DNA from: Gordius albopunctatus
Lineage: Eukaryota
Direction of reading: 5' to 3'
DNA length: 64,000 nucleotides
Assembly: GCA_964276515.1 (NCBI GenBank)
Contig: OZ193910.1
Span: 1,612,001-1,676,000 of the forward strand
Part shown: positions 15,962-55,447 of the stretch, piece by piece
Layout of the letters: each line of letters begins with the position of its first letter
Numbering within the stretch: the stretch's first letter is position 1
Notes under the pieces: generated by a model
What the model was told of the DNA's origin: nothing
Databases searched by the model: none
What the model saw: the letters and a program-made list of their open reading frames with translations, nothing else
Program-made: the position numbers and the translations under genes

Positions 15962-17834
15962 AAAATTCGCGAGGAATGGAGACGATGAAACATAAAATTG
16001 CAATGTCAGGAAAGAAACTACTAAATGGTTTATTCTAATTTGAATCAATCACAACATCTGAAAAAAAAAAAATAATTTATAATTTTATTTCTAAACAAAA
16101 GGGTATACATATGTTAATCATATGTAAAAAGGATAATTTTATCAAGCCGTTTCGCAAATCAGTACCTGCATGATGTAAATTATTAAAATATTAATCATTT
16201 TAGCACTCCGTGGGTAGATGTACAAAATAAGTTAGTGAATATTATGATTCCATTTTCCCAGTAGCTTAACCAAATTTACCCTGGAGTATCTGCAAAATTT
16301 GGCTAGTTTTTATCCATTCGTTTTTAAGATAGTGTTTTAGCACCTTCCATAATATACAAAAAAAAATATCGGTATCTTTTCAATTGACAAAAGTTCATTT
16401 GTAAAAATCTCTAAATATCTAAACTCCCCCGCATTTTACATTTTTCAAGTGTATAATGTCAAAAGTTCAATTTGTTTTATCCCAAAAAAACACAGCAATT
16501 ATATTTAGGTTGACGTATTTAGCATGAAGGTAACTTATAATTATCCCTTATCTGTAAGCTTATTTATAACATTCTATGATTTTTTAGGAGAGGGTGTATC
16601 AGTTCTTCCTATAAATCCTTAGATTATACAACATTCATCAAATAAAAGCCTGTGCTATGAATGATTCCTTAAATTAATACTGATATTCATAAAAATGCAA
16701 GAGATTTTTAGATAACTATTAAGTAAAGTTTCTTACTGAATATGACTAATTTTGCTCATAACTTTTTTAATTTTATGGTTGATATAATAAGAACATATTA
16801 AATAATGTAGGAACTATAAATATAGAAAATTTGGCTGAAAAAAACTTAAAAACAAACAAAAAATTGAGTCATCAAAACTTAAGGAAGTCTTGACCCTTTA
16901 AATAAAAATACATCCTATAAGGTTATATTCAAGAAAAAATCTACATTTAATGTCTAAACATTATATACAACTATTAAAATGGTAATTTTTGTGTAAAAAT
17001 CAAGATTTCTGCCTATTTGTTTTGTATCAAATTTAATTTATTGTAGATTAAAAAGAAAATTATAATTATGTTACTTTATAAACATAGTATAATAAGTTCA
17101 TTAATTTAGAATTTTTGTTTATTAAATTACTAAGCTTTAATAATATTTACTATAAAGTATAAACTCTTAAAACTATAAAATTAGATTATGAAAAAAAGCT
17201 AAAATATTGTCATTTGCTAATTGTTAGAGCTTAATTTCGTCAAATAAAAGCCTATGCTAGATATATATAGATTAAATGAATAAAATAATAACCAATCTTT
17301 TACTCGTTGATAGATTACTCATTATTTACAATTTTCTAACCATGAATTTAAGAAATTCCATAAAATGTTATCAGAAATATACATGTAATATTTTCCAAAA
17401 CAAAATTTTTATAATGTGGGTGTAACTTACATTTCTATATAATATTAAGTATAAACACTCTTTTTCAAGTTAAATATCTTTTGGAAATTATTAAAAATGA
17501 TTGTTATATTACCATTATATAATATTTTTATATTTAATATATATATCTAATTCGATTTTATTTATATTTTAAATATGTATCCAAATGCGGTTTATTTTAC
17601 ATGTGCCCTTTTGTCAATTGAACCAGATTCAAAATATCAACATTTTTTTGTAATATATTATTGAAACCCATTTGTGGAAAAAATTTTTGTATACATTTCT
17701 TTTTATTGATATTTAAATTTTAAACTCTGATTTTAACATGTTAATTTTTCCTTGTGCTATGCCAAAGTACTTATATGTGTGATTTTTGATTTTTTTAATA
17801 TGTTTAATCTTGATAATTGCAGTATTTTTGATAG

Positions 17835-18245
17835 TTCTTCGTCTGGAGATGGTATATAAACAGTTATAACATTTTATCAAATAGTAGTCATGAATCTGAG
17901 AGTGAGTTAACAGGGGATAAAGATGAAGAGGAATTAATTGATATGTTTAACAAAAATAGTTACTTTTATGGTAAGTAACTTAGATGCTTTTATAATATGA
18001 TATATTTCAAAGGGAAAGTGGCACAAAAATTGTCCTAGTAAAAATGTAGAACAAGGAAATGGAATTTTGCTATGCAATTATTTGGAGAAAAGCCATATGG
18101 GTGGGCAGCCAATTCTCTCTTGATTATTTCAAATTATATATTACAGATGAAATAGTTTATAGTGTATTAACATTTAGCAACTAATGACGTATGAAGCAGA
18201 GGTGGCTTTGGTGTTAGCATTTTTAGAGCAATATATGTCACTAAT
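17835..18245 (+). mobile_element. Decayed piggyBac-like transposase remnant
   Basis: Broken frames give an acidic N-terminus, SYFYG...KWHKNCP, YITDEIVYSVLTFSN and GFGVSIFRAI, resembling piggyBac transposase N-terminal motifs; heavily degenerate. Confidence 0.4.
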
Positions 18246-28851: not shown

Positions 28852-31496
28852 CATCCAGCAAACTTTATATTAAAATTTGGGTCATAATAGCCAAGATTTG
28901 GGGACTGGGGAGGGCAAATTGATAATTTGTTGTTTATCTAAAAATGATTTCATTAAATATCATAAATAAATTTAATAGGGGCAGCCGCCCCTTCTTGCCC
29001 CCCCCCCTGACCGCCCTCCTAGGAATCCATTATTTAAATGGTATCTAAGAGATGCCTTGATTTCTAGTAATACCGATTACCACTACTAGTAGAATTTTCA
29101 TTCTTCTCTTCATCACATGCATAAATCGATAAAGTCATCTAAACTAACCCTGGCCCCTCTCGTGCTGGTTTAGTGGCACAAGTGCTTAATGCGTTGACAT
29201 AGCTGAGGACAGGAGGACATCAGTACTGGAGGGGGGGGCAGGTTAAAAAGCGGGCAAATATAATATTTTTCTTTTAAACAATATTTGACTTTATTGTAGA
29301 AGCTGTGAAGTATGGGGGGGGGGGCAGTAGTTCCTCCTTGCCCCCTTGGCTAGTTGCCCTTACCCACCTAAATCTCTCACCTTCATCCCGATCGTAATTA
29401 TTGATTTTATATTTCGAAGCGCGACAAAGTCTTTTACCTAGTGTAGTATGATGATACTAGGGATTTGGAATTGGGACGCGCATAATTTGCTCTTAGCTTT
29501 CAATAATCACGCTAATTACCATTACTTAATTCGATATTATATATCCGATTAGGGGATGGGGCCACATTTTAAATTTCAACGGAAAAATAATTTTTTTCTA
29601 AATTGTCTGAATTGTGCATTTTATGTAAAAAATTTGCAGTCAAGTTTCATCAAATTACACTTTAAGAATCCAGGGTGTTTCTATCATGGGCGTAGCCAAA
29701 GGGGGCATGGAGGGGTGGCTGCCCCCCTCTAAATCCTAAAATGTGTTGAAATATATTAAAATTATGGGGCAAAATTTTCAAAAAATCATCATTTCGCCCC
29801 TCCTTAAAACAATATTGCCCCCCCTCTAATTCCAGTGCTGGCTTCGCGCAGGGTTTCTAGATCTCCTCCCACCCGCATTATATTATGTTTTCTTCAATTC
29901 AACCATACCTATAACTCAAAAACTGAAATATTTCTATACATTTGACTACACGACTTTAGCCCTTGGGCTTGTGTAAATAAATGAAAAAATCTTGTTAAAA
30001 ATCAATAAAGATGTGATAGCAGCTATATGATTCAACACCCATTTTAAAATCACGTAAGATGCCGCCTTTCTTCTTTACATAAAATTTGCAATCTGGCATT
30101 GCCTGAGGAGAGCCAACCTGAAGTATTAAAACTAACCAACAACAATACATAACATAGTATTATTGTATGTATATATAGTAAGTCTAAGTAGTGAACTCGT
30201 TCTCTCTCTCTCCCTATATGATATGGTATATGTCTTTTAGGAAGCAAGGGGTTGATAAAACTTGTGTGTTTTGTATTGTATGAAGTGTAGTAGTTGTAGT
30301 AGTATGACTTTTTTTACTAAGTTACACCGATGATGAGATGACATCGGTCTATTTGTGTGTCGTCAAACAACCCCCCACCCCCCACAAATCATAGGGAGGG
30401 GGGGGGGGTAGGGTATAACACGTGACTATATCACTAAACCGCCCGCCCCGCCCCCCGTTTATAAATATCGACCCCGTCTTTTATTTTAAATCGGTGTTAT
30501 ATGCATGTTATTGTGTTGTAGCACACTTCTCACTATTATCACTTCTGTGCAAAATGTAATATAGGCAAGGGTTAGATTCAGTGATTTATTTGATAATATG
30601 TATTTATTTGATATAAAATAGTATTATACATTTTGATATAACTCATTTTGTTTCAATTAACAATCATAGTATCCTTTTATTACCTACTTTTTTAGTACAT
30701 AATTACATGCGTATGAATATGCGTGACGACGGGTCTCAATTTCTAAAATACGCGAATATTACATTTTGCACCAGATTCACTATTATTCTACTATGATGAG
30801 ATGAGGACTATAGCAAACGCGGGCATCATATTCACTCTTCTCCAGCTCCACACACCATACTGACTGCTAGCCTAGCTGCATCAAAGCGGGGGGAAGGGGG
30901 GGGGCGGCGGCGGCGGCGGTAGGGGAGAAGCTCATCAAAGTGTGTGTGTACGTGTACGTGTAGTAAACCAATAAAAATGTATTAATAAAATAATAGAAGC
31001 AACACTCCCATCCCTATCATAATGTTCAGCGCACTTACAAACAAAGGCACCACCACCACCTACCAACTTACTTAAATATATAATAATTTCTTGGGTTGGG
31101 CAGCATTGAATCGAGAAATCATCGATAGAGATATATAGTGGTGTGGATTTGATAGGGGTCGGTGGTGGGATGGGGGTAGAGGCATTGATTTTTAATAACG
31201 TCACAAAACCTGGCTTCCCTTCGGAGTCCCTCCCGCATCAATATTCAATGGGACTTTTCGTAACGCGCGTCGCCCTGGTTACGACACTTTGTTAGAGCGT
31301 GGAGAGGACAAATTATATTATTGATAACTTTATCAAGCAGCCTCTGCGCGCTCGTTCTCAGTGTTAGTGTCGCGTTGCCAATTTGGCACACTATGCCCCC
31401 ACCCCCACACATTACGTTGATCGTCTCCAAAATCTATTTTGAATACTCTACGAGAGAAAGTTAATAATATCATATTGTTGTCGCGTAGTATAGTTA

Positions 31497-32210
31497 ATGG
31501 CTAATTACGACGAAAGCACTACTTCAAATTTAAACGCTGCTACTACTACAGCAGCAGCAACAACGCTTAGTAATACCATTCATTCCCCACCTGGTATAAA
31601 TAGCACGTATCGGATGAAGCGTAAAAAATTTATGAGTTTAACGTCAGCAGCGGTTACGCTCAAGAGTAAGCTACTCAAGCTTTCCCTCACCAAACTCGGC
31701 CAAATCACGGATCCAGAAATCAAGCTGAGACGCTGCGTACTCATATACAACGCTGCGAAGGCGCTCAAGCGCGAAATCGTGGCGCTAGAGGAGAAGCGTA
31801 GCGCTGCCCTTAACGCTTCTTGCCCATCTCCCTGCTCGATTAACGGGAAAAAAGGTCAGTACATTATAAAGGAAGAAGACGCTCTACTTAAAACTTACAA
31901 CGTTCCCCCAATTTCTAGCGATCCTACGACTGTATCAGCACCCTGCCCGGGTAAAGATCAATACAGGTATTCCAATAGCGGCGTTACCTATCATTTTTAT
32001 CCGACGTCCTCAAATCGTAATAACTACGAACCGCTTGACGCTCGGGGCTACCAAATAGGGGCGTCAAAAAACGCTACCACTTCGGCATCATATTCCATGT
32101 TGGATTTTTCGAAATATTCTCAACATCATCATACATTAACAAGTCCCTCATCATCCCCACCATTAATCGCAAATTCGCCAGTGGAAAGTTTAAAATTATT
32201 CGATTTTTAA
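31497..32210 (+). CDS. SERTA-domain protein (SERTAD/CDCA4/Taranis-like), duplicate copy
   Basis: 237-aa ORF with LLKLSLTKLGQITDPEIKLRRCVLIYNAAKALKREI, the SERTA signature; protein identical to 54734-55447. Confidence 0.8.
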   Translation: MANYDESTTSNLNAATTTAAATTLSNTIHSPPGINSTYRMKRKKFMSLTSAAVTLKSKLLKLSLTKLGQITDPEIKLRRCVLIYNAAKALKREIVALEEKRSAALNASCPSPCSINGKKGQYIIKEEDALLKTYNVPPISSDPTTVSAPCPGKDQYRYSNSGVTYHFYPTSSNRNNYEPLDARGYQIGASKNATTSASYSMLDFSKYSQHHHTLTSPSSSPPLIANSPVESLKLFDF

Positions 32211-33931
32211 TGATAACCACGGGCGTAGCCAAGGGAGGGGGGCAAGGAGGGGCGGCTGCCCCCTCTCTAATTCCAGGGCTGACTAAGCCCGTGTCGATTA
32301 CGATTGTTATCTAAAATTTTGTCAAAAAATAAAATGCGTTACCAAAAGATCTCTGTTTCTTCATTATTTACCCTGAAAATATTTATTGGGGACCGACCCG
32401 CATGAATTGAATCACGGAATGGCAATACGGATGAGACTATTTGTAAAATATGGACAACTCACAAATTTTTTATTGATGCGTACTACTATTTTATTATTTA
32501 TATGTGACATATCTATTTATATTTTGTGTCTCGTTAAAAGTGATCAATAAAATTGACCGTTATCTCTGGATATTTATTTAAGTTTCCAAAAAGTATAAGT
32601 TAGTAGCGTCGAATCTTTGTTTAGCGTTAAAAAAATATATATGGTTTGGCAGGATATATTTGAAAATCTGCCCCCCCCCCTTTAAATCTAAAAATTTGTT
32701 GAAATTTATTAAAATTATGGGGCTAAAATTTGAAAAACACTCATCTAAATGAACATTATACTTGAGTATGGACTTCTACAGGACGTGGCCAAATTTAAAT
32801 AACCTGTAAAATTAATTAAATTTTGGATTAAACTTGTGGAAAAATATTATTTGCCTTTCACTACATTATTATAATTAATATCTTGGCTTGTAATATAAAA
32901 AAATAATCTCCAAATTACAGTCACTTTTTAATTAAAAATAACCCCATTGTTTTACAATTCATAAATATTGAAGGATAAAATTATTAAGTTGGAGTTTTAA
33001 AGGAACTGAAATTGTGTTATTTATCCAAACTAGCTTGATTTAGAGAGAAAATTTAATATTGTTTGTCAATCTTAAATACCCGATTAGAAGATACATAAAG
33101 TAAATCAACAACCTAAAAAAGAATATTTTACTTTATAATACTTAAAGTTTAAGATTAATATTTTAAAAAATATAGCATTATTCGTAATAAATCAAATGAA
33201 TTTTTAAAAGAATTCTTAACAACAAATTAATTTATTTTTAATAATATTAATTACAAGCAAAAAAACTAAAATATAATAATCTATAAAATTCACCTTTTTT
33301 TAACACCCTCTAAATTGTTGTTCTTTTTTGGTGAAAAAATCAATTTTAAAAGATCACTTACTCTAGCTATACTGCTTATGGAGAGTGTATTAAAAGGTCA
33401 TTTAAGAAATCAATAACTGCCACCGATTGTTCCTATAATTGAAAGTGAAACTATAATACCTAAATTTTTATTTTGACACCTCATTACTCTTAAAAGTTGT
33501 CAGATTTCAAATAAATTAATTGCATTTTTTGCTAAAATTTAGTAAAAAAATTCTTAAAATTTATTTTAAAAAAGGACTAATTTTTTATATTACGAAAATG
33601 GAGAAAGAAAGAATGTATTTTTTTTAATTTCGCCCTAATTTGCTTGCATATATAAATTTTAAATTTAAAAAGAATAAGTCTAATTCTTATTTAAGATCAA
33701 ACTTTAAAACAAAAAGTTTAAAAAATGTAATTTCAATTGATGCTTTATTTATAATCAAATTATTAAACACGAAATTTTATTGCACGATTGCAGGGCTCCG
33801 TTCTAAAGAGTTGTAACTTTTTGTAATCTGATCCATTTAATTTTAATTTTTGTTTGAAACTTGATTTAGGAAGATGAAAAATTGCTGTAAAACTTCACGT
33901 TTCACGACTCTAAGTTATTCTAGGAGACATT

Positions 33932-36095
33932 TTAAAGTTGTAAGTATTGAGCGTAGTTGTATCCCGAAACAGAAAAATCTTGAGCATAGAGCTGAATTAA
34001 AGATCTAACTTGTTTTTTACTCAATTGTTTCATGTATTTCTTAACTACCCTTCCACTGGCACGGCTTTTTCTCTCTAAAGTATCATGTCTTAGGGTTGGA
34101 AATTGGGCCCGGAGCCTACCAAAATTAAGCCTAGAATGTCGTCGAGCTATTCTGTGTAAGATGTAATTTTTGTCGAAAGTAAAAGTTTCGAAATGTCCCA
34201 AAATATCGAAACGAGCTTTGCAAGGAGAACATAGTTCGACGAATGGCCTCCATAATTTGTCACCTTTCAAGGTTAGGTGGCGTTCGTACAGTATGTAAGA
34301 TACGAATTCTGGAAATGTGACATCGTGGCCCCTGTTAAAAAATTCATAAATTATGTGCAAATTGTAATTGGGTGATGGTTATAAATATAAATTTTATAAT
34401 AGTGACTTCCGGCCTAGCGAGGGGGTGTCAGAAAGGGGCAGCTGCCCCCCTCTCTAAATCCAAAAATTTGTCAAATTTTAATATAATCATGGATAAAATT
34501 ACTAAAAATTATTATTTTGCCCCTGACTAAATCATTTTTGTCCCCTATAAATCCAACCCTGGCTTCGCCTATGGTGACTATTTAATTTCAAAACAGGCGA
34601 GATCGGTTTAAACATTGTAAACATTTAGAAATAGTTGCTTCTTTTTCTTATGAAAGTTCAACATTATTGGATTCTGAAAATGTAAAGGACCCTGGATTAG
34701 AGAACTGTAAAGTAACTTTATTTCAACACGAACCTGACTTGAAATATTTCGAAAGTTTTTAACCTCCGCACGATCCGATCCGAAAGCATTTCAAAATTTC
34801 AATTGGAACCCGAAGGGATTCGGGTCACCCGTGCATGTTCCTACCTTGGATTCTCCTGTATTCCTCACCAAGTGTTATTATTGGAGTTTAAAAACAACAT
34901 TAATTTGTCACTAGGATTAGGCTTATTTTCAAATTCACCTTTTATATTAAAACGTAACATGTCGCCTTTAGAGGATGTGCACTCTGGCATGTGTATTTAA
35001 TTCGGATGATCTAAATAATAGAGGAAGTAGGCCCCGACTCTAGTTATTATTTACTCAAAGATGCCCTACCCCTATGTTTGCATATTTGCTCTAGTTTAAT
35101 TGCATTCTAACATTTTTATGACATCCGTTGCTTAGGCTAATATTAGTAAATTCGAGAATAAAGGGGCTCCTGAAGATCGTGAATTTAAAAAAAATAAAAT
35201 TTTTGTAAAATCCTGTATAATAATTTAAAATAGAATATACGCATTTCGTGCTTAGATCTTGTGGTTTTAATTTTGTTCAAAAAACTACCATTGACTCGCC
35301 TGATGAATAGAGTGTTAACCCAGGATTGGAATTGGAACTAGAGAGGGCAATTAAGATTTAAGGAGGGGCAAAAGGAAATTTTTTTGATATTTTCACCAAA
35401 CCTTTCCAAATAATTATGATATACTCAGTTTAAATTCCCCAATATAATTATGAATGAAAGTTGCCCAATTTTCAAATCCATAAGCAATGCTTAATGCCTT
35501 TTTAAATCGCTTTAGGCAAAATATGATAAAATTCCGGCCCAAACCCAAGCCCTATTATTTTATCAAATTTAGCCTTAGCCCCGCCCAAAACTTTTCAGGG
35601 CCGCCGGGCCGGGTCGGGCCTCGGGCGGCCCGTGTAGACTTACAAAACACGAGATGATAGGGAGGCGTTAGGTCTAAAGTGAGCTATTATGAAGGTACCG
35701 AGGTGTAATTGATAAAACCGATTCATTTCACCGGCTGCCAGTGTAAATTTATCTAGGTAAGCGGAAACCAATCTTTCGAAAGGATGACGAACGAAAGCGA
35801 AAGTCAGGAAAGACGTTGAAATGTTGGTAAAACATTTGTTTTCGGACCAATACCCATTTCCCGCATACAAATTATTTTTGTAATGAGCATCCAGCATCGA
35901 TATTCGATCTGCTAGTTGCTGATCATTTTGGAGAGCTTTGGCCGTGCCGAAATAATCGAGGATTGCCTTGGACTTTGATTTTTTAGTGTGCATTCTGAGT
36001 TTAGGAGTTACCATAGATTTCGCATATCGATCATACATATTGGAATTCGATCCTTCTGATTTTGAACGGGTTTCACTGAGTAACATAAGCATTTT
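33932..36095 (-). CDS. Carbohydrate sulfotransferase, duplicate copy 5'-truncated by the gap
   Basis: Exons 36095-35644 and 34331-33932 mirror the complete gene at 50304-53011. Confidence 0.8.
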
Positions 36096-37679: not shown

Positions 37680-39923
37680 TTAGGCCACTTTTTTGCCGAA
37701 CAAAGATGTAATGGCGGTAGCTATGGCAGGGTTCCTCAAGGCTGTCATATTCAAGGTGGCCGCGTAGTCTAGAGCTTTGCCCAGCCCAGGCCTGGTCTGA
37801 TTCAAGTTAGATTTAGTGCCTTGCACGGCTAAACAATCAAGACCGGCTATTCGTTCAGCCATGTTCAAGCAGTGTTTTAACGTTACGTCAGCATCTAAAA
37901 TTTCTTTTTCGAAAGCCGCTTCTTTATTATCGGGGTCGGGAGAGTTTCTGGAACTTCGCAATAGTTGAGGGACTATCATGGCAAACCCGTTGGCTTGAGC
38001 TTCTAGTCCAGTAAATGGACGACCAGTTAATGCTATTTCACGCATGAAGGAGTCACTGTGTCCCATTAAATGGCTCAGCCTCTGCGTTAAACCCACGTCC
38101 GATGGAAATCCTAATTGCACCTCCTAAACGCCAAGCATAAATATTGAGAAATGATGATGATGATCGCTTTGAGAAAGTTTAAGCTAAAATAAAATGAAAT
38201 CATAGCCAAAAGTATGAAGGAGTAGCGTTGTAAAAACGCCTGGGTTTTGTTTGGACGACCTTCGGTTTAAGTAACACTCTCCAGTCTGTTTTTTCACATT
38301 TCGACTGAGCCTTGAGGCGGATTGAGAAAAGTAGACGACTAAAACCAGGGACCGATTCAGCCGTTTATACAACACTAGTATAGTTTATTTCGAAAAACGA
38401 GTTTTATCTTTAGCTCAAAACGATTAAAAAGACCTTCGGTTTAAGTAAGACTCTCCAGTCTGTTTTTTCACATTTCGACTGAGCCTTGAGGCGGATTGAG
38501 AAAAGTAGACGACTAAAACCAGGGACCGATTCAGCCGTTTATACAACACTAGTATGGATTATTTCGAAAAACGAGTTTTATCTTTAGCTCAAAACGATTA
38601 AAAATTCGGGGATTTGTTTGAATTAGGATGGCATATCGAAAATTGTTTAAAAAGTATGGCATGGTTGCAAACTAAAGGGCTAGAAAGCTAAGTATGACCG
38701 ATATATTAACTTTTATACAACTAAAAATGAATTTGAAATAATAAGCTGATTTGGGATATAATTTATTTGTATATTTGATGAGAGTATTCAGTTAATTGTC
38801 TATATAATTACTTTTAAGTAATTTAATATTCCTTAATTTAAAAAGTTTAAGTAAGGTCTTACTATTTAGACTTTGCTATAGCAATGATCATTAAGGAAAA
38901 ATAATTATTTTATGGTTCAAATTGCCTTCTTTTGCAGAATTTCAAGTAAAACACAAATAACTGATAGAATTGAAAGGCAATAATGACCCATTTTTAAATA
39001 TGGCAATATGTATTTTTATTAGTCAATTTAGGCAAAAAAACATGAATTTGTTATATTCTCATATAAATAAAAGATAAAGTTATATTCAAAGAATAACTTA
39101 AATAATTTTTAACAACAAAAATATAAAATAAAAATATGGGAGTGTAATATTTAAAATAACCAGTATTTAATATTTTTAATTTTTAATATACTTATACCAA
39201 AATAAAAACAATTAAAAAAGTAATACCCTTATTTGAAAAATGCTGTTAGGAGTGCAATATCGGATATCAGCGACTGAGGCTAAAGCCATCCCTGCTCCAT
39301 AGCACCCTCCATGAATGGCTGCAATAACAGGAACTCTACACTTCAATAATTTATTTATTATAAGAAAATTTTCAAGTTTTAATGACCCTTTTAAATTATT
39401 AATTCCTACAAATATAAGATTTGGAATCAATAATAAGTTTAAATTTATTACTTTTTCGATAGTATTAAAGACTTCTTGAATTTTAAATATGTGATTTCTC
39501 AATTGCAAACTCTTTTTGGCAAAGTCTTCATTTAATTTAGGATCCATACCTATTGACATCAAATTTTTCATTTCCCCAAAATCCAATCCTACAATCATTA
39601 ATGTTATTGTAATATATTTTTTATTTACCTGATGAAAACATATTACCTTCCCCTGATAAAATAACAACATGAATATTCTCACTTTCCTTAATTTGACTGA
39701 AGCATTTAATTATTTCCCTAAAAATGGCACATTTAAATTTATCTTAAAAAAATAACCGGAAAATTTTTGAATCTAATGAATTTTTTGTTTTTGACCTATT
39801 AAGTTTAACATGGCACACATTTTTGCATGGTTCTAAAACTATCAAATTTGTATAATCTGCAAATTTACGGACATATTTGAAATTGAAGGATTTGCCATAT
39901 GTTTTGAAAAGCAACATTGTCAT
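37680..39923 (-). CDS. ECH1: Delta(3,5)-Delta(2,4)-dienoyl-CoA isomerase-like (crotonase family)
   Basis: Exons 39923-39757, 39717-39629, 39588-39452, 39340-39227, 38123-37680; motifs HVKLNR, VVILSGEGNMFSSGLD, IEKCRVPVIAAIHGGCYGAG, ADIRYCT, REVQLGFPSDVGLTQRL, REIALTGR, AVQGTK.NL. Confidence 0.85.
38257..38604. repeat. Tandem duplication, 174-bp period, in ECH1 intron
   Basis: GACCTTCGGTTTAAGTAA...CGATTAAAAA at 38257-38430 and 38431-38604, nearly identical; includes the right half of a family B MITE. Confidence 0.92.
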
Positions 39924-40463
39924 CCAACTCGTCACTTGCCTACCATATGACGGCCAGATTTAAACTTGCGAACTTATGACACAATGGCGGAGACAAGGGG
40001 GATTTTGGGTTAGAGCCCCCAATTGACAAACAATTAACCTTTTTCTTGGTTTGTATGGAAAAAATCAATAATAATAAATTATTTATGTAAATTTTATTTT
40101 TGTATCTATCTTGTTATATAAAAAATGATGTGTTTTAATGTTTCTTAATAATTTTTATGAAAGGAAACAAATTTATTTACCTTGAAAGTGATTTGGTTGT
40201 GATACATACAAGGTGATAAGAGAAAGAATACACGAACAGAAATCAAAATTAATTTTTCTCCATTACTTTTTGATAGAACTTGTGATTATAAGAGGATCCT
40301 GAAAGCTTTTATTTTTTAATAGTTAGCAAACTAACAAAATTAGGTTATTTTTGTTAAATAACATAAATTTTGCGTTTCCAATCTATTTTATTCGAGGTCT
40401 CGCCTATCCAAAAAAAATTTTCCGGATTCAAATTAGTCTAATTGGGGGGGGGGGGGCAGCGCC

Positions 40464-40720
40464 TTAAATTCTAAATTTAATTAAATCCTATAGACGAACA
40501 CAACTCGTTCTATCCATCCAGCTCTACACTTTCCACTTGGCATGCTGAAATTGTTAATAATATTTATATTATGAATCTTATTTTTAAATTAAAAATTAAA
40601 TTCACAACAATTATATATTTTTTAACTAAGCTTAAATTCTAACTTTTATTAAATCCTATAGGCGAACACAACTCGTTCTATCCATCCAGCTCTACACTCC
40701 TCACTTTCCTTTGGCATGCT
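40464..40720. repeat. Direct repeat of ~85 bp
   Basis: TTAAATCCTATAG.CGAACACAACTCGTTCTATCCATCCAGCTCTACACT...TTGGCATGCT near 40481 and 40649. Confidence 0.85.
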
Positions 40721-41003
40721 ATAATTTAAAAATTTGATAAAATTAAATATTAAAAACATGCAATTACTATATAATGATGATACAGAAAAAAATAGATGTC
40801 TGAAAACCTATATAAAAAGTTTTTGCAATTTACTAAAAAATACTGAATATAGCCCAAGCCCCACAAAATTTTTAATAACTATAAAAATAATCAATATTCA
40901 TAATCAGATTTATGTAATATAAAATATACCTGCATAAATTACTATTTTTAAATCATAAAATTATTTAAATAAATTTAGAGTATTTCATAAATTTTTCTAA
41001 AAT

Positions 41004-41782
41004 TTGTGGTGCTTTCAGGTGGCTGGCCGGTCCGGATTGAGGGTACGGTGTATCTTTCTGGCGGGAGCCAAGTTCGTGAGGGATAATCGCCTGGGTTTTC
41101 GTCCGTGGGAATCCACTGGATATTGTAGCGGACGGCGAGGAGTGCGTTAAGCCCGTATTCCTTTACGAACCTGGAAATAAGTTCCTCGATGATGGGGGAG
41201 TTGGATCCCCCTTTTTGGAGGACGTAATATGCGGTGGTGGAGTCTGTTCGGATTCGGGGGAACGGGTTCCCTTCGTATTTTGCCACCAGGTAGCCGTATA
41301 GAGCTCCTAACGTTTCGCAGAGGGTGATGTGTGGTTCCGGCGGGAGCACGAAGTTGAACGCTGCCGCCGCATCTTCGAAGGTTATCGAGATGACGTTGTT
41401 GTGGATCGAGATTCCTATGTGGTCGCTGGAGGCATCTGTATATACTATGACGTCCGGGAGGACGTATAGCGGAATGCGCTGCTTAAGGGAGTTGACTATA
41501 GCAAATAGTTTAAAGCAAGCTGCGTTCATATCGAATAGGGAGGACCTTTCCGAGAGTTGTGCGTAAAACGGGGCCAAGAGTTTTGACATGCCGGTTAAGT
41601 TGTACAGAAAATAGTTTAACACTCCTAGAGCTTCTAGTAAAATTTTGGTAGGGGGCGGGGTGTTTGTAGTATAGGCATAGAATAAAATGTCAGCGGCATA
41701 TTCAAGACGCGTTACCGTTCTGTCCGAGCATCGAATGGAATGGTCTTCGAAAAAGATGTTCATCCCCAGGTACTCAATGTCC
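41004..41782 (-). pseudogene. Inverted pol fragment: RT thumb plus complete RNase H
   Basis: DIEYLGMNI...VYTDASSDHIG...HITLCETLGAL...IRTDSTTA...KGGS...QWIPTDENPGDYPSR (D-E-D-D set); matches 43517-43662 and 43663-43804 with 4 mismatches in 288 nt. Confidence 0.9.
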
Positions 41783-41787
41783 GGAAA

Positions 41788-42462
41788 ATGGTAAGACCTC
41801 ACAGGAGTGCACCAACAGGTACACCGGCAGCCCCGGAACCAGTGAGACAAGACTCAGGATCGAGCGAAAACGACTCACCGACCCCCTCAGGACACGATGA
41901 ACCAGTGGACATGTCCGAAATCCTTCGAGTCATCACCAGCCAAAACAGAAGGGCCCAAGCCCAATTTGCACAATCGCAACAGACAATCACACAGCTAATT
42001 CAACAGCTGAACGTCCAAAGAGTCGCCCCGCAGCCAGCGATCAATATTGTGCAGCCCGAAGTGGCCCCAAAAACTGCGAGGGAAAAGCTCACAGAGCTAG
42101 AAGACAAGGTCAACAAGTTGAAAGAACTCATGGCAAATTTCCCCACCAAAGTGTCCCAAAGAGACCGCAAGGAAGCTCAATACATCTTCCTGGTCTCGGA
42201 CACATTGTCGGAGGAGTCCCCAGACGCACTCCTCAGGGAAACAGCTGCCCGCCTTACCACGCTGGCAACAGCGATTAACTTCAACTGGGCCACGGCTATC
42301 CGCAACGACAAATCATTCGCGGAAGATTGGAATATTCCGAATCTAGAAGTCGTTCAGCCTAGACGACAGTTATTTCCTGGCGCTGGCAGAGGCAGAAGCT
42401 TCGCAAAGGGCCGCAACGTCAAAAAGGCGCCGGCCTCTTCCAGGGGTAAGGCGCAGGCTTAA
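41788..42462 (+). CDS. ORF1 of the RT element: gag/capsid-like protein, 224 aa
   Basis: ATG in strong context (GGAAAATGG) right after the inversion junction; the ATG at 41740 in the ORF track lies in the inverted arm. Pro/Ser-rich N-terminus, coiled-coil-like helices, RLTTLATAINFNWATA helix and basic RG-rich tail. Confidence 0.75.
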   Translation: MVRPHRSAPTGTPAAPEPVRQDSGSSENDSPTPSGHDEPVDMSEILRVITSQNRRAQAQFAQSQQTITQLIQQLNVQRVAPQPAINIVQPEVAPKTAREKLTELEDKVNKLKELMANFPTKVSQRDRKEAQYIFLVSDTLSEESPDALLRETAARLTTLATAINFNWATAIRNDKSFAEDWNIPNLEVVQPRRQLFPGAGRGRSFAKGRNVKKAPASSRGKAQA

Positions 42463-43884
42463 GACCTTGGCTGGATCATGGGAAGTCGGGCCTTCGGGCT
42501 TACCGCTTCCCGATGGGGCAAACACATCCAAGTCTCCCAGATGGCTTGCGCAACTTATATTTCAAATTCGGGAGACGCGCCGTTGGATTTTTTCCCAATC
42601 AGAACTTCCGTCGGGGGCGACGGGAGCGATCCAGTTGCCTGACACTAATTATTCCGATACATTTATTCCAGCCCCCGACTACGAGCATCGCATTAAACAG
42701 GTGGAGGCCGCCTTCGGCCGGGATCTGGGGTCTGAATCATTCCCCATTTTTAGCCTCCACAAATCATTATTCTGTTGGAACAAAGAGCCGTCACGGAACC
42801 CACCTACCGGGCCGTTAGACATCGCAACTTCTAGGCTCATACCACATCATTCGCAATCCCCTTTCACAAGAAGGATAGCCCGAAAAGGCTTCATGCCTAA
42901 GCTGGACATGGTTAAAATCCGGGAGCACGGAGGCATATACCTCACATCTCGTCGAAAAGCCATCTCCAGAGGTAAACCAGAGCATTTCCGCACCATGCTG
43001 GAGATGCAAACGGTAGAAAGGACCGACAAAAATATCATCAAGTCGGCCACCTTTTTCATCCCGAAAACAAACGGGGACGCTAGGGTCATTACGGACCTAT
43101 CCGAGGTCTCTAAGAACTTCGTTCACTATCCAATAAAACTAGCATCCATCCCCCTGACGTCCAGACAGCTGAGCAGGGCATCGTACGTGGCAAAAATAGA
43201 CCTCAAACCGGCTTTCTTTAGCATCCCACTAAATATCTGCAAGAAAATACGCAGCGTACACATTCGAAGGGCTCAAATACCGCTACAAAGTATTGTCCAT
43301 GGGAGCGTCATACTCCCCATACGTTCTACAGATGATCACCTCCGACTTAGCCAAGAAAGCGGTGGCCAAATGCAAATACAATGTCTACCTTGATGACATT
43401 CTTATATACGGAGACACCTACACAGATGTTCAAGAGGACCTAGAAAGCTTCTTCGGACTAGCAGCTGATTGGGGTCTCACGGTAAACGCTAGGAAATCTT
43501 CAATTCTACCGGAGAGGGACATTGAGTACCTGGGGATGAACATCTCTTTCGAAGAACATTCCATTCGATGCTCGGACAGAACGGTAACGCGTCTTGAATA
43601 TGCCGCTGACATTTTATTCTATGCCTATACTACAAACACCCCGCCCCCTACCAAAATTTTACGCACTCCTCGCCGTCCGCTACAATATCCAGTGGATTCC
43701 CACGGACGAAAACCCAGCCGATTATCCCTCACGAACTTGGCTCCCGCCAGAACGATACACCGTACCCTCAATCCGGACCGGCCAGCCACCTGAAAGCACC
43801 ACAATACCCGATATCCACGACGAAGAAGACGACCTCTTCGACTGGAACGATTGGGCAGGCGAAAAAATATATTTTCCGACCTAA
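42347..43884 (+). pseudogene. pol of the RT element (N-terminal domain, RT, RNase H remnant), disrupted
   Basis: Frame open from 42347; TFFIPK..GDARVITDLS, KIDLKPAFFSIPL, frameshift near 43235, YKVLSMGASYSPYVLQ, VYLDD, GLTVN..KS, IEYLG; 491-nt deletion at 43662/43663; NPADYPSR; stop at 43882-43884. Confidence 0.9.
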
Positions 43885-44069
43885 GGAAAAGAATACAATG
43901 CAACATGTTTAATCGATAGATTAAGTTAGGGCTTTATTAAACTAATTGATATGAAAATTATCTGAACGATATTTTAAAATAATGAATAAATACGTTGGAA
44001 TCCAAACTTGGGTTTCATTAGTTCTCCACTCTGCTATGCAAAAACTCTAACGGGGCATTCGTGATGAGG

Positions 44070-44240
44070 ACGAAGCTATGCGAAGCGAAAATTTCGATTG
44101 TCAATTTCAAATGTTTTAAGTGGATAATAGGGAAATATATATTATTTTAAACTTGTTCGATTGAGTCCATTATAAAAATCTAAATAATCTTGCACACTTT
44201 ATAAATTAGTGTCCTAAATTTTCGCTTCGCATCGTTTCGC
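44070..44240. mobile_element. Palindromic MITE-like repeat
   Basis: ATGCGAAGCGAAAATTT near 44078 is the reverse complement of AAATTTTCGCTTCGCAT near 44216-44232. Confidence 0.55.
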
Positions 44241-45269
44241 GCACATTATAAAGGCCGCGTCATATATTATATAAAAAAAATTTCCAATAGCTGTTTGTCA
44301 CACTAAAGTGGTCAGCTTCTTTAGATATTTGGATGATGGGTGATGATTGGCTATCCAGCGCTGACAGCCGTGTTCACGATGTGATTTTTACTCTTTTGAA
44401 ACCTGTGACACTTACTTCAAAGACTAAACCTATACCCACTACACCACCACGCCCCTATAAAGTTATATTATATTTACAGAAAAAGTCGAACATTAAAATA
44501 ATCTATAGGAATTTCTCGTGTTTTATCATCTACATACACACGATTTAAAGGGGGAGGGGCTGAGAAAGTTAGGGAAAAAAGAAAAAAAAACATAATTTCG
44601 TCACAATTTTTATGTGTATATTTGGCTTTATGGGCAGGCAACTGATCCTTCCAGTCTCCCCATATTTAAGCTCAGTGTTCTATTTTCACTTTAATTTTAT
44701 TTTAAGTTATAGACATTATAAAAAAGAATATACATAAAATTATAAGACGTCATCGTATGCCATCATAACGTACATTTTATTAATTTCTAGAAACGCCTCC
44801 TATTAGCATTTAATTTTATTTTAAGTTACGTTTAAAGTTTAAGTTACTCAAAATATCCAGTCCTATGAACATCTTTTACATTCTGGCATTATTATTAATT
44901 CTCATCGGAGAATCAACCTTGATTCTAATGGCACCTAACAATAACACGGTGCCCAAGAAAATTACAAAACGCGATAATATTAAGCATAGAAAGTTTAAAG
45001 GTAAAATTGTCAAAAATCCAAAATTCGACTAAATTATGATCTACTCAATCTCTCATTTTCCGTCATTATTTATTTTGAATCAATGTTTTTCCTTCCAAAT
45101 TTTTTAAACAAATTGATGTATATCTGTTTATTTTACATTTTATAATGTTTTGATTTAAAATAAAATGCTTTCTAATTACACTTATACTGAGTGAACGGTT
45201 GCCATAACCATTAAACAGTTGTTTTATTTTACTCAAAATGAGTTTCATTTATAGCTGCAATCTTCTATG

Positions 45270-46337
45270 CAGTCTTGTTAACGCTCCTTTTTAAAAGTAG
45301 CGACTCCCGCTCCTACCTTCTCAAAAGGAGCGAACTCCCGCTCCCGCTACTACATATTAAAAGGAGCGCTCCCGCTCCAACTAATGGAGTGCCGCTCCTT
45401 TGATTTTCATTTTTTAGAAGGTACACGGAACAAAATCCTATTTTTTTATCAAAACGTTTTATTTATATTATATGATATATCAAAATATTTATAATCCTTT
45501 ATTAGCTTTTAAAAGTAATAAATTTCTTAAATTAGAATCTAACAAACACCCACGCTTCTCCCCTAAGACCTGTTTTGCGATACTAAATAGGCGCTCCACA
45601 GGAGCACTAGAGGGAAGCGGGATATTGTATTTAATATAAATTTTTTTAATTCTTAGTATTGTTCAAAAATAGTAATTTTGCTATCATTATTTAAAAATAT
45701 CTATCCAATATATTATTTTCATGGTAATCGATTTCATTTAATCCAAAGAAATCTTCCAAATCATTACAAGGTTCCCGTGAATTAGTTGTAGCTATTTTTC
45801 CGTCGGTTATTTGTTTCCTTAAAAAATTAATTAATCTGGCTTTTAGTTCCATATTTTTTGGATCTTTTATCCATTCCCAATTCAATTTAAATGCAGGATG
45901 AACAATCGCTGCAATTATATTATCATCATTATAAATATTTGAAAATCTGCAATAAGGTTATTTAAAAAGATATAATTTATGTGTTATTATAAACCTTTTA
46001 TTAATACCGCTGATGAGAGACTTTACAAGAGGTTAGCAAAACTCTAAATCTGATAATTCATTTAATTTTGAAATGAGTTTAAAAATGGTAGGACTTAGGA
46101 AACCCATATAAATTTAGATAAAATTATATTTTAATTAAATTTTAATTAACAAATATTATTAATATTTAAAAAATAATATAATTTATATATTAAATTTAAA
46201 GGAGTGGAGGAGCGCCGCTCATCCGCTCCAGCCCTAAAAGGAGCTACTCCCGCTCCTCGTTTTTAAAAAGGAGGGGCGCTCCAACTTTTTTGGAAAAATG
46301 TAGCGGCGCTCCGGAGCGCCGCTCCTTAACAAGACTG
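45270..46337 (-). mobile_element. Internally deleted hAT DNA transposon (second family)
   Basis: TIR CAGTCTTGTTAA at both ends, exact 8-bp TSD CTTCTATG, subterminal GGAGCG/CGCTCC repeats, minus-strand remnants IIAAIVHPAFKL and YIKYNIPLPSSAPVERLFSIA. Confidence 0.93.
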
Positions 46338-50303: not shown

Positions 50304-53011
50304 ATGATGAAGATTATAAAAAAATATAAATTCAAAACTGACTCGCGATCTACAATAATCGGATTTTTTATGTTAATTATTACGATTTGCATGTATTTTT
50401 GGCAACATTCAATTCATCAAAAATCTCTCACAAATTCATCCGAGATTATGAAACTGGAAAAAAGCTTATTTACATTCAAAAAAAACAAAAGTAAAAATTA
50501 ATTTTATTTAAATATATATTACACATCAATTTGCCTAATGCAAAATTTTAATTTCATTTATAGGCAAACAAAAATGTATTTCTCAAGATGAAATTTTCAA
50601 ACATAAAAAAGTATTTATTCATTGTAATTACCATTTTAATAATTAAAAAAATGTTATTGAAACTTAGATAAGTGCAGAAGAGTTGCCAGATTATTTTAAG
50701 ACGAGAAATAATGAACTGAATAAAAGGTGTCGCACTTTATACGGGGCTAGTATGGGCCCGCAGATAGATTATGAAAACTTTGTGGCGGAACCCACAACTG
50801 GTCTTTTGTATTGCATGGTTTATAAAGTGGCCACTACAAATTGGCTTAAAATGCTTATGTTACTCAGTGAAACCCGTTCAAAATCAGAAGGATCGAATTC
50901 CAATATGTATGATCGATATGCGAAATCTATGGTAACTCCTAAACTCAGAATGCACACTAAAAAATCAAAGTCCAAGGCAATCCTCGATTATTTCGGCACG
51001 GCCAAAGCTCTCCAAAATGATCAGCAACTAGCAGATCGAATATCGATGCTGGATGCTCATTACAAAAATAATTTGTATGCGGGAAATGGGTATTGGTCCG
51101 AAAACAAATGTTTTACCAACATTTCAACGTCTTTCCTGACTTTCGCTTTCGTTCGTCATCCTTTCGAAAGATTGGTTTCCGCTTACCTAGATAAATTTAC
51201 ACTGGCAGCCGGTGAAATGAATCGGTTTTATCAATTACACCTCGGTACCTTCATAATAGCTCACTTTAGACCTAACGCCTCCCTATCATCTCGTGTTTTG
51301 TAAGTCTACACGGGCCGCCCGAGGCCCGACCCGGCCCGGCGGCCCTGAAAAGTTTTGGGCGGGGCTAAGGCTAAATTTGATAAAATAATAGGGCTTGGGT
51401 TTGGGCCGGAATTTTATCATATTTTGCCTAAAGCGATTTAAAAAGGCATTAAGCATTGCTTATGGATTTGAAAATTGGGCAACTTTCATTCATAATTATA
51501 TTGGGGAATTTAAACTGAGTATATCATAATTATTTGGAAAGGTTTGGTGAAAATATCAAAAAAATTTCCTTTTGCCCCTCCTTAAATCTTAATTGCCCTC
51601 TCTAGTTCCAATTCCAATCCTGGGTTAACACTCTATTCATCAGGCGAGTCAATGGTAGTTTTTTGAACAAAATTAAAACCACAAGATCTAAGCACGAAAT
51701 GCGTATATTCTATTTTAAATTATTATACAGGATTTTACAAAAATTTTATTTTTTTTAAATTCACGATCTTCAGGAGCCCCTTTATTCTCGAATTTACTAA
51801 TATTAGCCTAAGCAACGGATGTCATAAAAATGTTAGAATGCAATTAAACTAGAGCAAATATGCAAACATAGGGGTAGGGCATCTTTGAGTAAATAATAAC
51901 TAGAGCCGGGGCCTACTTCCTCTATTATTTAGATCATCCGAATTAAATACACATGCCAGAGTGCACATCCTCTAAAGGCGACATGTTACGTTTTAATATA
52001 AAAGGTGAATTTGAAAATAAGCCTAATCCTAGTGACAAATTAATGTTGTTTTTAAACTCCAATAATAACACTTGGTGAGGAATACAGGAGAATCCAAGGT
52101 AGGAACATGCACGGGTGACCCGAATCCCTTCGGGTTCCAATTGAAATTTTGAAATGCTTTCGGATCGGATCGTGCGGAGGTTAAAAACTTTCGAAATATT
52201 TCAAGTCAGGTTCGTGTTGAAATAAAGTTACTTTACAGTTCTCTAATCCAGGGTCCTTTACATTTTCAGAATCCAATAATGTTGAACTTTCATAAGAAAA
52301 AGAAGCAACTATTTCTAAATGTTTACAATGTTTAAACCGATCTCGCCTGTTTTGAAATTAAATAGTCACCATAGGCGAAGCCAGTGTTGGATTTATAGGG
52401 GACAAAAATGATTTAGGCAGGGGCAAAATAATAATTTTTAGTAATTTTATCCATGATTATATTAAAATTTGACAAATTTTCGGATTTAGAGAGGGGGGCA
52501 GCTGCCCCTTTCTGACACCCCCTCGCTAGGCCGGAAGTCACTATTATAAAATTTATATTTATAACCATCACCCAATTACAATTTGCACATAATTTATGAA
52601 TTTTTTAACAGGGGCCACGATGTCACATTTCCAGAATTCGTATCTTACATACTGTACGAACGCCACCTAACCTTGAAAGGTGACAAATTATGGAGGCCAT
52701 TCGTCGAACTATGTTCTCCTTGCAAAGCTCGTTTCGATATTTTGGGACATTTCGAAACTTTTACTTTCGACAAAAATTACATCTTACACAGAATAGCTCG
52801 ACGACATTCTAGGCTTAATTTTGGTAGGCTCCGGGCCCAATTTCCAACCCTAAGACATGATACTTTAGAGAGAAAAAGCCGTGCCAGTGGAAGGGTAGTT
52901 AAGAAATACATGAAACAATTGAGTAAAAAACAAGTTAGATCTTTAATTCAGCTCTATGCTCAAGATTTTTCTGTTTCGGGATACAACTACGCTCAATACT
53001 TACAACTTTAA
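50304..53011 (+). CDS. Golgi carbohydrate sulfotransferase (HNK-1ST/CHST8-14 family)
   Basis: Exons 50304-50490, 50564-50610, 50668-51299, 52612-53011; N-terminal TM anchor, 5'-PSB YCMVYKVATTNW, 3'-PB FAFVRHPFERLVSAY, WRP...CSPC, GHFET, LYAQDF. Confidence 0.9.
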
Positions 53012-54733
53012 AATGTCTCCTAGAATAACTTAGAGTCGTGAAACGTGAAGTTTTACAGCAATTTTTCATCTTCCTAAATCAAGTTTCAAACAAAAATTAA
53101 AATTAAATGGATCAGATTACAAAAAGTTACAACTCTTTAGAACGGAGCCCTGCAATCGTGCAATAAAATTTCGTGTTTAATAATTTGATTATAAATAAAG
53201 CATTAATTGAAATTACATTTTTTAAACTTTTTGTTTTAAAGTTTGATCTTAAATAAGAATTAGACTTATTCTTTTTAAATTTAAAATTTATATATGCAAA
53301 CAAATTAGGCCGAAATTAAAAAAAAATACATTCTTTCTTTCTCCATTTTCGTAATATAAAAAATTAGTCCTTTTTTAAAATAAATTTTAAGAATTTTTTT
53401 ACTAAATTTTAGCAAAAAATGCAATTAATTTATTTGAAATCTGACAACTTTTAAGAGTGATGAGGTGTCAAAATAAAAATTTAGGTATTATAGTTTCACT
53501 TTCAATTATAGGAACAATCGGTGGCAGTTATTGATTTCTTAAATGACCTTTTAATACACTCTCCATAAGCAGTATAGCTAGAGTAAGTGATCTTTTAAAA
53601 TTGATTTTTTCACCAAAAAAGAACAACAATTTAGAGGGTGTTAAAAAAAGGTGAATTTTATAGATTATTATATTTTAGTTTTTTTGCTTGTAATTAATAT
53701 TATTAAAAATAAATTAATTTGTTGTTAAGAATTCTTTTAAAAATTCATTTGATTTATTACGAATAATGCTATATTTTTTAAAATATTAATCTTAAACTTT
53801 AAGTATTATAAAGTAAAATATTCTTTTTTAGGTTGTTGATTTACTTTATGTATCTTCTAATCGGGTATTTAAGATTGACAAACAATATTAAATTTTCTCT
53901 CTAAATCAAGCTAGTTTGGATAAATAACACAATTTCAGTTCCTTTAAAACTCCAACTTAATAATTTTATCCTTCAATATTTATGAATTGTAAAACAATGG
54001 GGTTATTTTTAATTAAAAAGTGACTGTAATTTGGAGATTATTTTTTTATATTACAAGCCAAGATATTAATTATAATAATGTAGTGAAAGGCAAATAATAT
54101 TTTTCCACAAGTTTAATCCAAAATTTAATTAATTTTACAGGTTATTTAAATTTGGCCACGTCCTGTAGAAGTCCATACTCAAGTATAATGTTCATTTAGA
54201 TGAGTGTTTTTCAAATTTTAGCCCCATAATTTTAATAAATTTCAACAAATTTTTAGATTTAAAGGGGGGGGGGCAGATTTTCAAATATATCCTGCCAAAC
54301 CATATATATTTTTTTAACGCTAAACAAAGATTCGACGCTACTAACTTATACTTTTTGGAAACTTAAATAAATATCCAGAGATAACGGTCAATTTTATTGA
54401 TCACTTTTAACGAGACACAAAATATAAATAGATATGTCACATATAAATAATAAAATAGTAGTACGCATCAATAAAAAATTTGTGAGTTGTCCATATTTTA
54501 CAAATAGTCTCATCCGTATTGCCATTCCGTGATTCAATTCATGCGGGTCGGTCCCCAATAAATATTTTCAGGGTAAATAATGAAGAAACAGAGATCTTTT
54601 GGTAACGCATTTTATTTTTTGACAAAATTTTAGATAACAATCGTAATCGACACGGGCTTAGTCAGCCCTGGAATTAGAGAGGGGGCAGCCGCCCCTCCTT
54701 GCCCCCCTCCCTTGGCTACGCCCGTGGTTATCA

Positions 54734-55447
54734 TTAAAAATCGAATAATTTTAAACTTTCCACTGGCGAATTTGCGATTAATGGTGGGGATGATGAGGGA
54801 CTTGTTAATGTATGATGATGTTGAGAATATTTCGAAAAATCCAACATGGAATATGATGCCGAAGTGGTAGCGTTTTTTGACGCCCCTATTTGGTAGCCCC
54901 GAGCGTCAAGCGGTTCGTAGTTATTACGATTTGAGGACGTCGGATAAAAATGATAGGTAACGCCGCTATTGGAATACCTGTATTGATCTTTACCCGGGCA
55001 GGGTGCTGATACAGTCGTAGGATCGCTAGAAATTGGGGGAACGTTGTAAGTTTTAAGTAGAGCGTCTTCTTCCTTTATAATGTACTGACCTTTTTTCCCG
55101 TTAATCGAGCAGGGAGATGGGCAAGAAGCGTTAAGGGCAGCGCTACGCTTCTCCTCTAGCGCCACGATTTCGCGCTTGAGCGCCTTCGCAGCGTTGTATA
55201 TGAGTACGCAGCGTCTCAGCTTGATTTCTGGATCCGTGATTTGGCCGAGTTTGGTGAGGGAAAGCTTGAGTAGCTTACTCTTGAGCGTAACCGCTGCCGA
55301 CGTTAAACTCATAAATTTTTTACGCTTCATCCGATACGTGCTATTTATACCAGGTGGGGAATGAATGGTATTACTAAGCGTTGTTGCTGCTGCTGTAGTA
55401 GTAGCAGCGTTTAAATTTGAAGTAGTGCTTTCGTCGTAATTAGCCAT
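54734..55447 (-). CDS. SERTA-domain protein (SERTAD/CDCA4/Taranis-like)
   Basis: 237-aa single-exon ORF with the SERTA signature LSL.KL....DPE..LRR.VLI.N. Confidence 0.85.
   Translation of the reverse strand: MANYDESTTSNLNAATTTAAATTLSNTIHSPPGINSTYRMKRKKFMSLTSAAVTLKSKLLKLSLTKLGQITDPEIKLRRCVLIYNAAKALKREIVALEEKRSAALNASCPSPCSINGKKGQYIIKEEDALLKTYNVPPISSDPTTVSAPCPGKDQYRYSNSGVTYHFYPTSSNRNNYEPLDARGYQIGASKNATTSASYSMLDFSKYSQHHHTLTSPSSSPPLIANSPVESLKLFDF

Follow-up and report, generated by a model that had tools for sequence, protein, structure and literature searches.

A 3′-truncated, rearranged copy of a deep-branching reverse transcriptase-RNase H element family in the genome of a horsehair worm

The window analysed here, 64,000 nucleotides from the genome of the horsehair worm Gordius albopunctatus (assembly GCA_964276515.1, contig OZ193910.1, positions 1,612,001 to 1,676,000 of the forward strand; coordinates below are those of the window), contains a GC-rich island at 41004-43862 that encodes a small protein, ORF1, and, in an overlapping open reading frame (ORF), a reverse transcriptase (RT) followed by an RNase H (pol). 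An earlier note, made from the sequence alone, proposed that the island is an accidentally integrated, compact virus-like replicon without an integration enzyme, related to hepadnaviruses, nackednaviruses or HEART elements or, alternatively, a recombinase-less offshoot of the DIRS retrotransposons. We interpret the island as a rearranged, frame-broken and 3′-truncated copy of a multi-copy family, and this family as, likely, a tyrosine recombinase (YR)-type, that is, DIRS-order, retrotransposon with its recombinase encoded beyond 43862; we give this reading about an even chance. Elements of the DIRS order package their RNA with gag; their RT-RNase H then turns it into a circular copy, which the YR inserts into the genome. 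In this family, the predicted gag-like ORF1 would package the element RNA, a DNA circle would be made from it by the RT-RNase H of the overlapping frame, and the recombinase gene proposed to lie beyond the truncation point would serve to integrate that circle.

The island contains ~50% GC, and its flanks ~20%: most of the 100-nt bins of 41001-43800 fall between ~0.46 and 0.62, and the neighbouring bins between 0.13 and 0.23. The main copy begins just 5 nt upstream of the ATG of ORF1 (41788..42462, plus strand, 224 amino acids (aa)), and the pol frame is open from 42347, as described in the earlier note. The 5′ part of this frame (42347..43232, plus strand) consists of 168 open codons without an ATG, which run over the end of ORF1, followed by a DIRS-like N-terminal RT motif and the RT fingers (FFIPK, RVITDLS, KIDLK). 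The RT frame breaks near 43232-43235, in agreement with the frameshift placed previously at 43235. Next come the RT palm and thumb (43233..43662, plus strand; SMGASYSPY, YLDD, YLG), which end at an internal deletion of ~490 nt with a short microhomology at 43658-43662, and then the end of the RNase H (NPADYPSR) and an acidic tail (43663..43862, plus strand) that is cut off at 43862, a point beyond which other copies of the family continue. The palm matches RVT_1 (Pfam, E 3.5e-17 over 43233-43790), and all the RT and RNase H motifs listed earlier are present.

A second piece of pol lies inverted at the left end of the island (41004..41782, minus strand; 259 stop-free codons at 41005-41781) and comprises the RT thumb, the connection, the whole RNase H and the start of the acidic tail; it matches Gordionus proteins with a phmmer E of 2.5e-35. 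This piece pairs with the right copy in two inverted arms, 41637-41782/43517-43662 (146 nt, 2 mismatches) and 41004-41150/43658-43804 (147 nt, 3 mismatches), and holds the ~490 nt that are absent from the right copy, which bears out the claim that an inverted arm preserves 491 nt of pol. The arms are coding duplicates, not inverted terminal repeats (ITRs). No direct repeat, such as split A1-B1-A2-B2 repeats would give, was found inside the island, from which the natural ends of the element are missing. As also noticed earlier, no protease, integrase, YR, long terminal repeat (LTR) or poly(A) was found within the island; a profile built from 9 Pfam-matched YR ORFs detected no YR ORF in the six frames of the window.

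Other copies in the same genome are visible only as Logan contigs from three public runs (X1, X2 and X3; 80% likeness; X3 with a share of 0.05), for which the summed contig depth serves as a rough measure of copy number. The same contigs bear on another explanation, in which faulty assembly of an ordinary DIRS or Ngaro copy produced the inverted arms and the deletion, and which we consider very improbable. The window does hold an inverted duplicate of 7.2 kb that is nearly identical and is bounded by two N gaps, and none of the contigs listed (74 further pieces lie beyond these) bridges the deletion junction. However, 5 of the 293 arm positions are not identical, and a single-copy X2 contig crosses the RT frame break with 0 differences from the window. 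Single-copy contigs, furthermore, agree with the right copy as far as 30 nt beyond the last arm-distinguishing base, as well as with the distal part of the left arm, which is present in the X1 reads at single-copy depth; yet another single-copy contig (43833-44222) spans the junction with the right flank. With single-copy contigs matching at all of these places, we take the arrangement to be most likely genuine. The placement of the RT, neither nested in DIRS/PAT nor with the Ngaro row (see below), also speaks against an ordinary copy.

The island copy is 3′-truncated at 43862, where the YR gene usually lies, because the family contigs sharply lose similarity to the window at this position and share other letters beyond it. 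Across 43862, the depth drops from 6,483 to 537, the single-copy level, in X1 and from 1,127 to 79 in X2. Contigs that extend beyond this point and carry mutually shared letters unlike those of the window (5/45 in X1, 5/39 in X2 and 1/4 in X3; agreement 0.82) stop 42-79 nt later (176 nt in X3). The element, therefore, does not end at 43890 as originally thought: the letters from 43863 to 43890 are host flank of single-copy depth, and the apparent pol stop at 43884 is part of this flank. With the usual place of the YR gone, the absence of an integration enzyme cannot be read from the island copy. Accordingly, the claim of a complete replicon without such an enzyme is not supported; of the readings offered in the earlier note, the DIRS-order offshoot comes close to the best one, but its qualifier, recombinase-less, relied on a truncated copy.

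The family itself is multi-copy. Over the RNase H end, the summed depth in X1 is 5,400-18,000, compared with 537 for single-copy DNA, and 17 contigs each carry one variant alone, which together suggest roughly 10-24 diverged copies of this region. Among the 30 listed variant sites in 43692-43827 (30 of 92 table rows), 24 are third codon positions of pol; thus, the family has diverged under coding constraint in the pol frame, and a one-off accidental integration, as envisaged at first, does not account for it. Some of the contigs (8 in X1 and 8 in X2) carry loose letters before 43661, and others, of 925-1,692 nt, pass through the deletion site; therefore, there are other copies that lack the ~490-nt deletion. 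The RT frame break is not present in an 814-nt contig of ~85% identity. We also considered whether the open frame 43610-43912 might be a downstream ORF that overlaps pol, and rejected this: there is no ATG after 43662 and no Pfam match, and the variation fits the pol frame.

The only close relatives found come from another member of Nematomorpha. A phmmer search over 1.84 billion representatives yielded 7 matches, and all 4 below E 1e-10 are from Gordionus sp. m RMFG-2023. Taken together with a profile search, this gave 12 Gordionus proteins, encoded on 5 different long contigs and 32-48% identical to the longer window pieces. Two of these (P0001 and P0009) contain RT and RNase H in one ORF, and the proteins long enough to include the RNase H end terminate after NPADxPSR and, mostly, an acidic tail. 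No methyltransferase (MT) and no integrase were found in the Gordionus relatives, Dam matches being confined to the control DIRS proteins P0020, P0024 and P0032. Among the next database matches, which begin at E 1e-28, DIRS-type RT-RNase H(-MT) proteins prevail, followed by three unplaced proteins (P0022, P0031 and P0033) and then Ngaro-like, Gypsy and retroviral rows, with the labels assigned from motifs and Pfam. Word-indexed protein searches with single window pieces produced no match, but this method missed even P0001. The family profile detected no loci in viral or metagenome contigs; queries with P0022, P0033 and the pol of the metagenome contig L094 (see below) found none in viral contigs, and the latter none in prokaryote genomes. 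Among the matching papers listed, none describes such a family in Nematomorpha, and neither 'DIRS' nor 'virus' occurs in the main text of the Gordionus genome preprint. The family, thus, apparently is an undescribed, deep RT-RNase H branch, for which intact-looking ORFs are already annotated in the chromosome-scale Gordionus assembly.

In phylogenetic trees, the window sequence and the Gordionus proteins form a single clade on a long stem, with support of 97/98 and 100/99, and this clade appears deep, separate and strongly supported. It falls outside DIRS/PAT in 3/3 informative trees and is separate from the single Ngaro-like row; in the tree of RT plus RNase H (RT-RH), it is the sister to a group of DIRS/PAT and Gypsy (63/69). 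The rows of these trees do not include HEART, nackednavirus, proto-nackednavirus (PnNV) or named VIPER/TATE sequences, and 14/50 rows were dropped from one tree as truncated, redundant or very divergent; from the RT-RH tree, 7 further rows were dropped by choice, another 5 because they have no RNase H end, and the window row as well. Approximately unbiased (AU) tests rejected no sister placement, be it with DIRS/PAT (RT only, p 0.064), with hepadnaviruses and P0022 (p 0.34) or with NPAD-type elements (p 0.11). Thus, the earlier placement of the RT-RNase H within the radiation of YR retrotransposons and hepadnaviruses holds. Nesting among ordinary DIRS or Ngaro elements, named there as what would overturn the virus-like reading, was not observed, although sisterhood to DIRS/PAT is retained at p-AU 0.064.

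The likeness to hepadnaviruses had been inferred from two motifs, MG...SP and NPAD.PSR, neither of which is hepadnavirus-specific. A scan with the W-form of the NPADxPSR pattern gave at least 120 metagenome loci, with the motif in frame in 117, and nothing in viral contigs. After filtering of BEL-like loci, a YR ORF was found in 37 of the 52 NPADxPSR loci with at least 1 kb of downstream sequence, so that the motif is common in YR elements; 9 of the YR ORFs match Pfam Phage_integrase, 6 of these above its cut-off. PMG, likewise, is present in Ngaro rows (including P0041), whereas the HEART rows, all from ticks, have PFG and a DN active site ([YH][IL]DN) in 7/7 cases (supplement 6 of PMC12691608). 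The RNase H itself is of the YR type. Its spacing from TD to NPAD is 50, with a K-G-x-S helix, compared with 46-48 in YR-type rows and 38 in hepadnaviruses (5/5), and P0001 scores 157 bits with the DIRS/PAT profile, 72 with the NPAD-YR profile and 50 with the hepadnavirus profile, although these profiles differ in breadth.

These observations leave little room for an endogenised member of Blubervirales, that is, a hepadna-, nackedna- or proto-nackednavirus, which we regard as improbable. Endogenous copies of integrase-less viruses are typically rearranged, as the island is, the PMG-SP and DFS/DLS-x-x-S motifs resemble hepadnaviral ones, and the RT tree contains an unsupported sisterhood. Blubervirales also share with the family the small two-ORF layout, NPADxPSR and the lack of an integrase (PMC12691608, PMC11551314). 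However, the RT signatures common to the hepadnavirus and proto-nackednavirus rows compared from supplement 6, TG-x-x-FLV[DN]K, RLVV[DN][FY]SQ[FY]S and YMDD, are all absent from the window, where SATFFIPK, RVITDLSEVS and YLDD occur instead (compared with the supplement rows and loci L002-L019). No terminal protein was detected, either as a DNA_pol_viral_N match at E up to 1 or with a profile built from 17 hepadnaviral sequences, which gave no E below 0.54 in 45 ORFs (the nackednavirus and PnNV terminal proteins lie outside this profile), and a core profile of 15 hepadnaviruses matched none of the 45 ORFs. The RNase H is longer than the hepadnaviral one, the hepadnavirus profile scores lowest, and the family, unlike Blubervirales, is multi-copy and genomic. 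The motif argument for hepadnaviral kinship, accordingly, is not supported.

A fold search with the P0009 model against viral structures ranked caulimoviral, hepadnaviral and retroviral RTs together, without discrimination. The nearest Atlas clusters consist of Euglenozoa proteins of 538-548 aa (0.96), presumably, VIPER/TATE elements, and hepadnaviral P follows at rank 20 (0.93), an order that favours the YR-type reading. The RNase H of kinetoplastid VIPER/TATE is itself reported to be hepadnavirus-like (PMC6681497); the VIPER/TATE supplements (12 of 13 files) contain no protein motifs for comparison. A general caution follows: calls of a 'missing integrase' made from single copies, and PMG or NPAD motifs, are no evidence of hepadnaviral kinship.

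Among the known YR-type systems, the closest are the Ngaro-like and VIPER/TATE-like elements and the DIRS1/PAT-like elements. With the former, it shares a gag-like ORF1 that overlaps an RT-RNase H ORF without a protease, PMG, the absence of an MT (PMC6681497) and an RNase H with a K-G-x-S helix that ends in W-x-x-[ST]-x-x-NPADxPSR; it differs in the acidic tail, in forming its own long-stemmed clade and in that no YR or terminal repeats are seen, the 3′ part being missing. With the DIRS1/PAT-like elements, which give the highest profile score, it has in common an N-terminal RT motif as well as the motifs HIN-x-x-E-[IL]-LA and TDS-x-x-A-Y seen in its relatives, but no MT and, with the natural ends missing, no ITR or internal complementary region (ICR) was found, PMG stands in place of PFG, and the family lies outside their clade in three trees. 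For the DIRS order as a whole, the common features are the gag-like ORF, with its role predicted, and the RT-RNase H without a protease or DDE integrase. Kuafuorterviruses and Troyka, too, represent an animal LTR-like RT lineage outside the classic superfamilies (PMC11673190, PMC12440569); these have LTRs, a protease and an integrase, whereas the family has no protease between ORF1 and RT, and the pol of its relatives ends after the RNase H.

The main competing reading, which we hold tentatively as a possibility, is that of a HEART-like retroelement or virus-like replicon without a recombinase or a terminal protein, which would consist of ORF1 and RT-RNase H only (~2.5-3 kb), replicate extrachromosomally and enter genomes repeatedly via the machinery of long interspersed nuclear elements (LINEs) or break repair. 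HEART are RT elements found in invertebrate genomes that branch close to where the hepadnaviruses begin, and their mobilisation is called unresolved (PMC12691608, PMC12440569). Several observations favour such a replicon or weigh against a YR-type family. No YR is seen in the window or before the ends of the contigs of other copies, and every Gordionus protein that reaches the RNase H end stops after the acidic tail. Where NPAD loci do encode a YR, its ORF begins right at the RNase H end or overlaps it; the island has the acidic tail there instead, and the variation shows constraint in the pol frame only. A YR is lacking in 15/52 NPAD loci (one of the 15 is a BEL-like row that escaped the filter), and no MT domain, ITR/ICR or split direct repeats were seen in the family. 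Most of the family contigs over the RNase H end are near single-copy depth, so that the many diverged members under purifying selection would also fit repeated capture of a diverse virus; the insertion is head-to-head and doubly truncated, with a possible short target-site duplication. In the RT-RH tree, DIRS/PAT without the family is a group at 99/98 (which, however, also drew in the one Gypsy row), and the best RT tree places this deep branch as a sister to hepadnaviruses (45/34), a sisterhood that the AU test did not reject (p 0.34). Finally, a survey of transposable elements reports DIRS in Mermis only and not in nematomorphs, which is weak evidence given the automated annotation (bioRxiv 10.1101/2024.06.11.598342).

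The closest analogue of such a replicon among the collected loci is L094 (L094:1-3007), a 3,007-nt metagenome contig in which ORF1 overlaps a 790-codon frame with a long acidic, Pro-rich start, an RT and an RNase H ending in NPADVPSR. It has the two-ORF layout of the island and, of all the loci, scores highest with the family profile outside Gordionus (105 bits), yet it forms a separate branch outside the family in the trees. No YR, terminal protein or core match and no terminal repeat were found in L094, in which only 150 nt follow the pol stop.

On the other side of the balance, the absence of a YR is judged from a truncated copy, the RNase H and the RT N-terminus are of the YR type, most of the NPAD-type elements with enough flank encode a YR, and the family, with PMG and YLDD, differs from the 7 published tick HEART rows, as compared by eye. 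A broader version of the replicon idea, which we likewise consider possible but less likely than not, is that horsehair worms carry old, diverse two-gene replicons without an integration enzyme or terminal protein, positioned between YR retrotransposons and hepadnaviruses; these would represent a stage without a recombinase that could have given rise to protein-primed hepadna-like viruses, and would persist as dozens of independently captured copies. If a YR is present, the family is a divergent DIRS-order lineage and, as far as the literature was searched, its first record in Nematomorpha; if it is absent, the lineage is a new one without an integrase, and HEART-like replication could be studied in it as a tractable model.

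The searches brought up further elements of this kind. P0022 (725 aa, cluster of 3) is an RT-RNase H ending in NPADLPSR. In the RT-RH tree it is placed as the sister of the hepadnaviruses (79/85), and with the hepadnavirus profile it reaches 76 bits, above the Gordionus family, with no terminal protein match; it is a better candidate than the island for a HEART-like or proto-nackednavirus-like element. P0006 is an RNase H fragment similar to L094. Two metagenome loci (L042:4853-9231 and L067:811-5189) contain a 926-codon RT-RNase H-like frame with an NPAD end and a divergent 563-codon ORF that ends in a CCCH zinc finger; no YR was found in ~5 kb downstream and 2 kb upstream, and a cobW-type gene lies downstream in L042. 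The RNase H ends of L047, L051 and L077 are similar to those of these two loci.

Whichever of the two leading readings holds, the island itself is a dead copy, and its insertion was likely passive and not the work of a recombinase. The 3′ ends of the two pieces are 58 nt apart on the element map, and each faces host DNA; two cDNA pieces would thus have been joined head to head, as left by twin priming or double-strand-break repair, and the internal deletion would have arisen later or by a template jump. Twin priming predicts that the cDNA pieces joined to either side of a break are inverted (bioRxiv 10.1101/2024.12.14.628481), but the large overlap of the pieces would need two templates or a switch, so that this step is speculative. 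A 5-nt direct repeat flanks the island (40999-41003 and 43864-43868, plus strand, the right copy within the single-copy host flank), where the earlier note had seen no target-site duplication; with a chance expectation of 2-3%, it is suggestive only. A frameshifted LINE with putative endonuclease-like and RT-like frames is present in the window at 9590-12542 (minus strand), and machinery of this kind could have inserted the island in trans.

The 224-aa ORF1 product has a Pro/Ser-rich start, a coiled coil, a three-helix bundle and a basic tail, and on its position, coiled coil and basic tail we infer a gag role. A single-sequence AlphaFold2 model (pLDDT 67.5) places a long helix next to the three-helix bundle and leaves the basic tail disordered. 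Fold searches returned only generic helical-bundle matches, with no capsid, core or gag structure among the matches listed. No Pfam family scored above the cut-off, no match was found among the 1,126 ORFs of the collected loci, and no loci were found among viral contigs; the C-terminus is weakly similar to that of the L094 ORF1 (E 0.047). The 168 codons open before the RT in the pol frame have a chance probability of ~5e-4 at the antisense stop rate of the island. Because this frame has no ATG in its first 180 codons (none before 42893), pol is likely produced by frameshifting or from an unusual or internal start; no slippery heptamer was found near the ORF1/pol overlap. Over the overlap region (42314..42715, no strand assigned), the summed contig depth is 10-40 times that of the RT region, perhaps either because dual coding keeps more diverged members above the identity threshold or because of a short high-copy derivative. 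A 122-codon third open frame here (42450-42818) has no Pfam match, and no unusual RNA fold or Rfam match was found in the high-depth region.

High-copy host repeats lie on both sides of the island (40300-41000 and 44050-44460). To the left are enoyl-CoA hydratase-like exons (37680-39959, minus strand), and, to the right, fragments at 45489-45957 (minus strand), presumably, the end of a hAT transposase, one piece of which was scanned without a Pfam match. The 7.2-kb inverted duplicate mentioned above pairs 28874-36095 with 50848-58068 at 98.7% identity; its first copy, situated between two 200-N gaps, is likely a misplaced haplotig.

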